From the NCBI GenBank assembly GCA_007376285.1, contig VMFZ01000004.1:300-64299 (forward strand): 64,000 bases of DNA, given 5' to 3'. The notes below the pieces were generated by a model that worked only from the letters and a program-made list of their open reading frames with translations, searched no databases and was not told where the DNA came from. Made by a program: the position numbers and the translations under genes. Origin of the DNA: Parcubacteria group bacterium Gr01-1014_17 (GTDB lineage Bacteria; Patescibacteriota; Minisyncoccia; Phycocordibacterales; UBA10002). Numbering within the stretch: position 1 is the stretch's first letter; every line of letters starts with the position of its first letter. This document shows, piece after piece, positions 61,230 to 61,961 of this stretch.

Positions 61230-61925
61230 TTAAAATTGCGACACAACACGCAAATCGCCATTATAAAACATTCGGATATCGGGGATGCCGTGGCGGAGCA
61301 TAAGGAGGCGGTCAATGCCACAGCCGAACGCGAACCCGCGGTATTTTTTCGCCAACAAACCGACCGCTTCAAACACATGTGGGTGCACAAGCCCCGCGCC
61401 GCCAATCTCTAGCCGCTTGCCTTTCCATTCCATATCCACTTCCACTGACGGTTCTGTAAACGGGAAAAAGCTTGGACGAAAACGAACATTTATTTTATCA
61501 TCATGGAAAAACTTTCTAAAAAAGAGGAGCACAGTGCCTTTTAGTTGCGCCATAGACACATTTTTATCTACATAGAGCCCTTCCACCTGATAAAACTCCG
61601 CTTCATGCGTTGCATCTGTTGCTTCGTTCCGAAACACCTTTCCCGGCACGATAATCCGATACGGAGGTTTAATGCCTTTTTTCAATTTCTCCTCCATATA
61701 CCGCACTTGCACCGGTGAAGTCTGCGTACGGAGCACGAGTCGCTCTTTGGATTTAATCCAAAAAGTGTCTTGCATATCCCGCGATGGGTGGTCCTTCGGA
61801 ATATTGAGTGCGTCAAAATTGTACCATTCTGTCTCAATTTCCGGTCCGTCAGCAACACTGAACCCAAGTTCCGCGAAAATATCCGCGATTTCCCGTATCG
61901 CATGAGAAATTAGATGTATATGACC
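61230..61925 (-). CDS. pheS: phenylalanyl-tRNA synthetase alpha subunit, catalytic core only; no canonical start codon
   Basis: GHIHLISHAIREIADIFAELGF...HPSRDMQDTFWI...FRPSFFPFTEPS...GCGIDRLLML. The frame is closed by TGA at 61926..61928, and there is no ATG/GTG/TTG before MQDTF. Confidence 0.8.
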   Translation of the reverse strand, partial: GHIHLISHAIREIADIFAELGFSVADGPEIETEWYNFDALNIPKDHPSRDMQDTFWIKSKERLVLRTQTSPVQVRYMEEKLKKGIKPPYRIIVPGKVFRNEATDATHEAEFYQVEGLYVDKNVSMAQLKGTVLLFFRKFFHDDKINVRFRPSFFPFTEPSVEVDMEWKGKRLEIGGAGLVHPHVFEAVGLLAKKYRGFAFGCGIDRLLMLRHGIPDIRMFYNGDLRVVSQF

Positions 61926-61929
61926 TCAA

Positions 61930-61961
61930 AAGTGGCGCTCTACCAACTGAGCTAAGGTGGC
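61930..61961 (-). pseudogene. tRNA 5'-half remnant (acceptor plus D-arm only)
   Basis: GCCACCUUAGCUCAGUUGGUAGAGC with no pairing anticodon or T arm downstream. Confidence 0.4.

Follow-up and report, generated by a model that had tools for sequence, protein, structure and literature searches.

The pheS locus of the Parcubacteria group bacterium Gr01-1014_17 raises the question of whether a gene that opens without a canonical start codon, directly beside half of a tRNA gene, reflects the organism or its assembly. We analyzed a 64,000-nucleotide stretch of this genome (the window), in which pheS lies on the minus strand. The retained portion of the gene, codons 7 to 237 plus the TAA stop (61230-61232), occupies 61230..61925 and begins at Gly7 of an intact protein reading MEHTQKGHIHL.... 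The frame is open up to 61925 and is closed by a TGA at 61926..61928, as the initial annotation had reported; across this point it translates as ...VERHF*GHIHLISHAIRE..., also given as ...VERHF*GHIHLISHAIREIADIF.... No canonical start was found in the window ahead of the GH...HP motif or elsewhere before codon 51. The ATG of MQDTF (61775), which the initial annotation had correctly placed about 50 codons in, is the earliest in-frame ATG, GTG, or TTG and yields a 181-aa ORF. GenBank annotates PheS of Gr01-1014_17 as a 181-aa fragment.

The 231-aa frame matched PF01409 over positions 14-246 of 246 (305.7 bits; cutoff 19.8) and TIGR00468 over positions 69-322 of 324 (296.4 bits; cutoff 237.45), exceeding both curated cutoffs for a PheS class II core. 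The TIGR00468 match begins at model position 69, and the N-terminal coiled-coil arm (model positions 1-68) was not found in the window PheS, in agreement with the earlier reading that the frame opens at the catalytic core. The gene for the beta subunit is adjacent: pheT (59329..61227, minus strand; 632 aa, with domains B3_4, B5, CLM, and FDX-ACB) lies 2 nt downstream of pheS. A promoter scan detected no sigma-70-like site around the locus.

Immediately upstream of the pheS frame, 61927..61961 (minus strand) holds nt 1-35 only of a tRNA-Thr(UGU). Read from 61961 to 61927, the sequence is GCCACCTTAGCTCAGTTGGTAGAGCGCCACTTTTG, which comprises the acceptor 5' strand, the D-arm, the anticodon-stem 5' strand, and the loop through the second anticodon base. 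ARAGORN called no complete tRNA at the remnant. Rfam gave no tRNA in 61700-62300 at E<=10 (a chance snoU83B was the only match), and a whole-window Rfam scan at gathering scores gave nothing at the tRNA/pheS locus. The 73 nt that follow from the tRNA 5' end in the window folded no better than shuffled sequences (z +0.39). The 3' acceptor strand AGGTGGC, which would complement GCCACCT, occurred 4 times in the window compared to 4.16 expected by chance, and none of these was in a tRNA-like context; the claim that the tRNA 5' part has no matching 3' half was therefore upheld. No other tRNA-Thr gene is present within the 64-kb window. A half-tRNA was also not conserved in relatives, because all 7 of the 7 related loci with a tRNA carry a full gene of 71-73 nt. 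A split or permuted tRNA gene was rejected on the chance-level count of the 3' strand and the lack of a conserved half-gene. Elsewhere in the window, the tRNA callers disagreed: a weak Rfam tRNA at 34315-34383 (minus strand, 33.9 bits) was missed by ARAGORN, and the tRNA-Val (35365-35439) and tRNA-Tyr (54701-54783) called by ARAGORN, both on the minus strand, were missing from the Rfam gathering-score list.

We used an exact-sequence look-up of the window PheT (632 aa) as the probe for an independent assembly. This look-up returned contig k139_465646 of ENA ERZ27284378 (hereafter L091), a MEGAHIT contig of 62,850 nt that was 100.000% identical to the window by blastn over 5,598 nt and 276 nt. 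The retained pheS corresponds to L091 476-1171, and the tRNA remnant to L091 374-408. Between them, at a silent join in the window (61926..61927), 66 nt are missing, namely TAAAGTGGATGTCCCCAGTTCAAATCTGGGAGGTGGCTTTTTCAAGAATATGGAACATACGCAAAA, with no microhomology. The 66-nt block consists of tRNA-Thr nt 36-73, an 11-nt spacer, and the ATG plus five codons of pheS (MEHTQK), in the order TAAAGTGGATGTCCCCAGTTCAAATCTGGGAGGTGGC-T-TTTTCAAGAAT-ATGGAACATACGCAAAA. L091 374-446 was called by ARAGORN as a 73-nt tRNA-Thr(tgt) and folds as a cloverleaf (dG -32.2, z -4.0). The intact pheS follows with an ATG at L091 458 and encodes 237 aa (MEHTQKGHIHLISHAIRE...); this assembly and all relatives have a canonical start ahead of the GH motif. 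One independent contig only, from MEGAHIT, spans the 66-nt block.

The composition of the block accounts for much of what the initial annotation had described. The TGA that closes pheS is a product of the join, its T and G being tRNA positions 34-35 and its A the third base of pheS codon 6 (Lys6). The GAGG at the join is likewise a by-product, made of tRNA G35 and the AGG of AAA-GGT. SD-like motifs were found upstream of 13 of 123 window ORFs compared to a 9% background, which is near background, and this join-made GAGG was rejected as a ribosome-binding site. The suggestion that expression needs a non-canonical ATA or ATT start, or leaderless initiation, fails, because the ATG is in the missing block and GAGG and TGA were both made by the join. 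A deletion that fused a truncated tRNA to a truncated pheS had also been proposed; a block is indeed missing, but its absence is very probably not the state of the organism, since the region is intact in the re-assembly. Nor did a deletion remove the coiled-coil arm, as only 66 nt are missing and the intact PheS of 237 aa is also arm-less. An intact tRNA and a restored ATG, named beforehand as findings that would count against the initial reading, were in effect what the independent assembly contained; a restored N-terminal domain, named with them, was not.

The same approach resolved a second gap. Exact look-up of the L25 protein (240 aa, ATG start) returned ENA contig k139_608205 (L092) and Logan contig SRR8863434_181144 (L093). 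Both were 100% identical to window positions 64000-62202 and then ran on into a 227-nt block, the first 124 nt of which are supported by the Logan contig. A 139-nt overlap merges L092 with L091 and results in an intact 430-aa SLT_2-like ORF. In the window, this block is missing at a silent join at 62202..62203, with a 1-nt ambiguous T. Because of the 227-nt gap, the SLT_2-like coiled-coil gene (minus strand) is frameshifted there. Its 5' part (62203..63154) belongs to a 334-aa ORF with a frameshifted tail (62150-63154). Its 3' end (62089..62202, ending ...LAGCANAKKKAYAFYGDDVAELAEKYQKQIDILGAQ*) is out of frame with the 5' part and appears as a 36-aa tail ORF (62089-62199). The two gaps flank an island of 276 bp (61927-62202). 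Over 5,598, 276, and 1,799 nt, blastn of the window against the re-assemblies gave 0 mismatches, and once exactly 227 nt and 66 nt are taken out of the merged ENA contigs, what is left matches the window at every base over 7,672 nt.

SRR8863434 belongs to BioProject PRJNA512237 (Ohio groundwater), the BioProject of the study that produced the metagenome-assembled genome (MAG), and the match of the re-assemblies to Gr01-1014 is at the level of BioProject, not of sample. No record came back from exact look-ups of the 181-aa PheS, of L25 as a 246-aa protein with a TTG start, or of a 692-aa ORF from the middle of the window. A 30-mer taken from the 5' region of pheS had 0 exact matches in JGI metagenomes, indicating that the strain is absent from the JGI collection.

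The intergenic spacer between the SLT_2-like gene and tRNA-Thr (61962..62088, minus strand) contains a long hairpin, and the spacer is genuine, being identical in the re-assembly. The hairpin insert is about 75 nt (61990-62085; arms at 61994-62008 and 62067-62081), with a dG of -43.5 kcal/mol (z -4.0). It was not present in sibling species L001 and L002, had no Rfam match, and is single-copy in the window. We considered it as a mobile element that caused the neighboring deletions and rejected this, because it is single-copy and stands unchanged beside the intact blocks in the re-assembly.

Loci from six siblings were fetched for comparison (L001, L002-L005, L006, L087, L088, and L090; 74-89% PheS identity). 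In all six siblings, tRNA-Thr(UGU) is complete and its 3' end is 9-12 nt ahead of the pheS ATG; upstream of the tRNA, wherever the contig includes the whole gene, is an SLT_2-like gene of 425-429 aa. Alignment with these siblings leaves two gaps in the window, a clean one of 66 nt that extends from the anticodon loop as far as pheS codon 6 and the second, of 227 nt, in the SLT_2-like gene. The pair of tRNA-Thr(UGU) and pheS start is found at L001 2917-3003, L002 3026-3111, L006 85-170, L087 2418-2503, L088 2420-2503, L090 681-765, and L091 374-460, 9-12 nt apart in these seven genomes, and the spacer is U/A-rich (e.g., TTTTCAAGAAT) without an SD. If the two genes are co-transcribed, 3' processing of the tRNA would leave a nearly leaderless pheS mRNA. 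Several homologue gene calls extend upstream into translated tRNA, as in P0013 (...ATLAQWQSN...). L089 (76% identity) and all relatives at <=63% identity among the matches listed in the GTDB PheS scan were without the tRNA, so that the tRNA/pheS adjacency is a subclade trait.

The short PheS has a wider distribution. The best 120 PheS homologues, from Paceibacteria and relatives, were 226-331 aa, with all but four below 290 aa, and begin M-x(2-10)-GH[IL]H[PL].... In the GTDB scan and PheS alignment, at least 17 Patescibacteria loci (among L007-L019, L022, L023, L030, L040, and L063) have the pheS ATG 2-21 codons before the GH motif. In the same scan, at least about 60 non-CPR bacteria have about 100 additional PheS codons. 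Judged from these alignments, the arm-less PheS is a lineage-wide trait of Patescibacteria, unrelated to the lesion in the window. The comparison of pheS length and upstream tRNA among relatives that the initial annotation had recommended thus set the window apart by its tRNA-Thr and its start, both complete in siblings, and not by a short PheS, which is lineage-wide. The coiled-coil fragment of PheS normally takes part in tRNA-Phe binding (PMC3275996). In the window PheT (632 aa), no match to the tRNA_bind/B2 domain was found, and a full-text literature search found no paper describing a reduced Patescibacteria PheRS.

The neighboring pheT also differs between the window and its siblings. In four siblings, pheT reads ...YEC-T-L/I-TAA and terminates there, in a conserved YTT TAA ACA ATT (L001 5280-5330, L002 at about 5906-5950, L006 at about 2377-2420, and L088 at about 4721-4760). 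Their FDX-ACB (B8) domain runs on in frame +1, where it is called as a separate ORF of 106-108 aa with an overlap of 17-23 nt. The sibling pheT may be split into two genes or translated with programmed +1 frameshifting; its CUU-UAA-A resembles the +1 frameshift site of prfB, and L002 has AUU-UAA-A. In the window and the re-assembly, 72 nt in place of 1 nt (window 59640-59720) give a single 632-aa ORF, and the insert contains a perfect 24-nt palindrome (CCCCCTCCTTTATAAAGGAGGGGG, 59652-59675). Next to pheT, the longest ClpB ORF (56525-59344, minus strand; 939 aa, GTG start) overlaps the pheT end by 16 nt. Some 40 aa at the N-terminus of this ORF form an implausible extension, and the re-assembly gene call is 898 aa; the true ClpB start is probably an internal ATG.

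Taken together, the missing blocks, their exact content, and an intact allele with identical flanks were directly observed, and the half-tRNA/pheS junction, although present in the deposited sequence, is most likely not a real feature of the organism. The start-less pheS and half tRNA of the window are very probably the result of a silent scaffold join or a local misassembly. The MAG was binned from idba_ud scaffolds. When idba_ud estimates a negative gap, it may trim and concatenate contigs, which would leave a silent join, and tRNA genes and conserved catalytic domains are typical branching places of metagenome graphs. The blocks missing from the window lie between identical flanks in the independent assembly (0 mismatches in 7,672 nt), and the other assemblers break in the same region: contigs of both MEGAHIT and Logan terminate within the 227-nt block, overlapping by exactly 139 (k) and 30 (k-1), which marks it as a branch point of the assembly graph. 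Neither join carries Ns in the deposited sequence, and microhomology amounts to 0 nt at one and 1 nt at the other. Both lesions strike genes; tRNA-Thr(UGU) and the pheS start are lost, and the other 231 pheS codons are undamaged. We infer that the join is an artefact rather than a rare real allele, and infer likewise how the assembler produced it: the 227-nt and 66-nt blocks would have dropped out where short contigs were concatenated with no Ns between them, or through a local misassembly. The true order of the locus would then be SLT_2-like gene, tRNA-Thr(UGU), 11-nt U/A-rich spacer, ATG-pheS (237 aa), and pheT, and PheS would be translated from a normal AUG.

It is unlikely that the window instead records a real deletion haplotype in the Parcubacteria population of the Greene aquifer, coexisting with the intact allele or replacing it at another time. 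In such a haplotype, tRNA-Thr(UGU) and the pheS AUG would be lost, and a near-cognate AUA or AUU start, or complementation by intact genome copies, would have to make up for them. The joins are without Ns, neither has a repeat to explain collapse by an assembler, and the pheS frame is intact after the join, all of which would suit a true deletion. However, two independent deletions 276 bp apart would be needed, yet there are 0 mismatches elsewhere in 7.7 kb, and one of the two would kill the tRNA-Thr(UGU) gene along with the start of an essential gene. The de Bruijn graphs do branch in the region, and hence some sequence heterogeneity exists, but the branch point (L092 2448) is not at the deletion boundaries (2353/2581) and so is not the bubble that a deletion allele would make. 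The near-background frequency of SD-like motifs also means that the GAGG of the junction is no evidence for a start site. MEGAHIT pops bubbles, and so would hide a deletion allele carried by a minority of the reads. If the haplotype were true, the aquifer would harbor a lineage, or a subset of genome copies, that persists with neither tRNA-Thr(UGU) nor a canonical start for pheS.

Two further readings take the junction as functional. An evolved arrangement, with a tRNA 5' half, as a split-tRNA gene or a tRNA-like leader, ahead of a pheS that uses a non-canonical or leaderless start, is what the bare look of the window, and that only, would suggest; it is highly improbable, because no relative has it, every related locus with a tRNA has it complete and followed by the ATG 9-12 nt downstream, and the re-assembly of the same strain is intact. 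The window, moreover, offers such an arrangement neither a 3' half or complement above chance level, nor an Rfam match, nor a fold better than shuffled sequence. Readthrough or recoding of UGA, giving a PheS fusion that starts at an upstream in-frame TTG or GTG and runs through tRNA-derived codons, is more improbable still and close to negligible. The number of nucleotides lost, 66, is divisible by three, and in-frame TTG, GTG, and TTG codons do lie upstream of the closing TGA, as this would need; but TGA is an ordinary stop here, ending 11 of 62 long window ORFs at a coding density of 88% (table 11), a second in-frame TGA occurs further upstream, and the closing TGA is itself a by-product of the join.

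With a silent join or local misassembly as the preferred reading, two silent gaps explain the 181-aa PheS annotation, the absent tRNA-Thr(UGU), and the frameshifted SLT_2-like gene in a public MAG, and it would be wrong to interpret these lesions as signs that a CPR bacterium has decaying genes, a reduced set of tRNAs, or an unusual way of initiating translation. As this case shows, searching for an exact match to the protein of a neighboring gene can bring up an independent assembly of the strain, and such questions can then be settled without reads. The real traits are the arm-less PheS across Patescibacteria and the tRNA-Thr 9-12 nt from the pheS AUG in the subclade; both are lineage-level traits and thus not peculiarities of the window.

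Among known systems, the lone tRNA 5' half ending in the anticodon loop recalls the split tRNA genes of Nanoarchaeum equitans, in which tRNA 5' and 3' halves are encoded separately. The resemblance is superficial: the window is bacterial and has no 3' half, no joining complement, and no conservation of the half-gene, and the re-assembly has the full gene. A closer likeness is to local misassemblies and silent scaffold joins, a known error class of short-read MAGs, given blocks missing at branch points near a tRNA gene and a conserved domain, between identical flanks. Like those errors, the window derives from scaffolds (here idba_ud); it differs from them in that no N run marks its joins. Sibling Paceibacteria loci (GCA_030697445.1 JAUYPY010000025, GCA_964441855.1 CAYTVT010000007, and ENA/Logan contigs) share with the window the gene order L25, SLT_2-like gene, tRNA-Thr, pheS, pheT, and ClpB. 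The tRNA 5' half of the window is identical to that of L001, and its PheS is 74-89% identical to PheS of sibling Paceibacteria. Compared to these siblings, the window is without tRNA nt 36-73, the spacer, the ATG and five codons, and the 227 nt, all of which L091 and L092 have. With the canonical bacterial PheRS alpha of the E. coli and T. thermophilus type, the window PheS shares the class II core and an adjacent pheT; unlike that type, the Patescibacteria loci examined are without the approximately 100 codons present in at least about 60 non-CPR bacteria. The locus is a member of the ordinary bacterial pheST family in its short Patescibacteria form.
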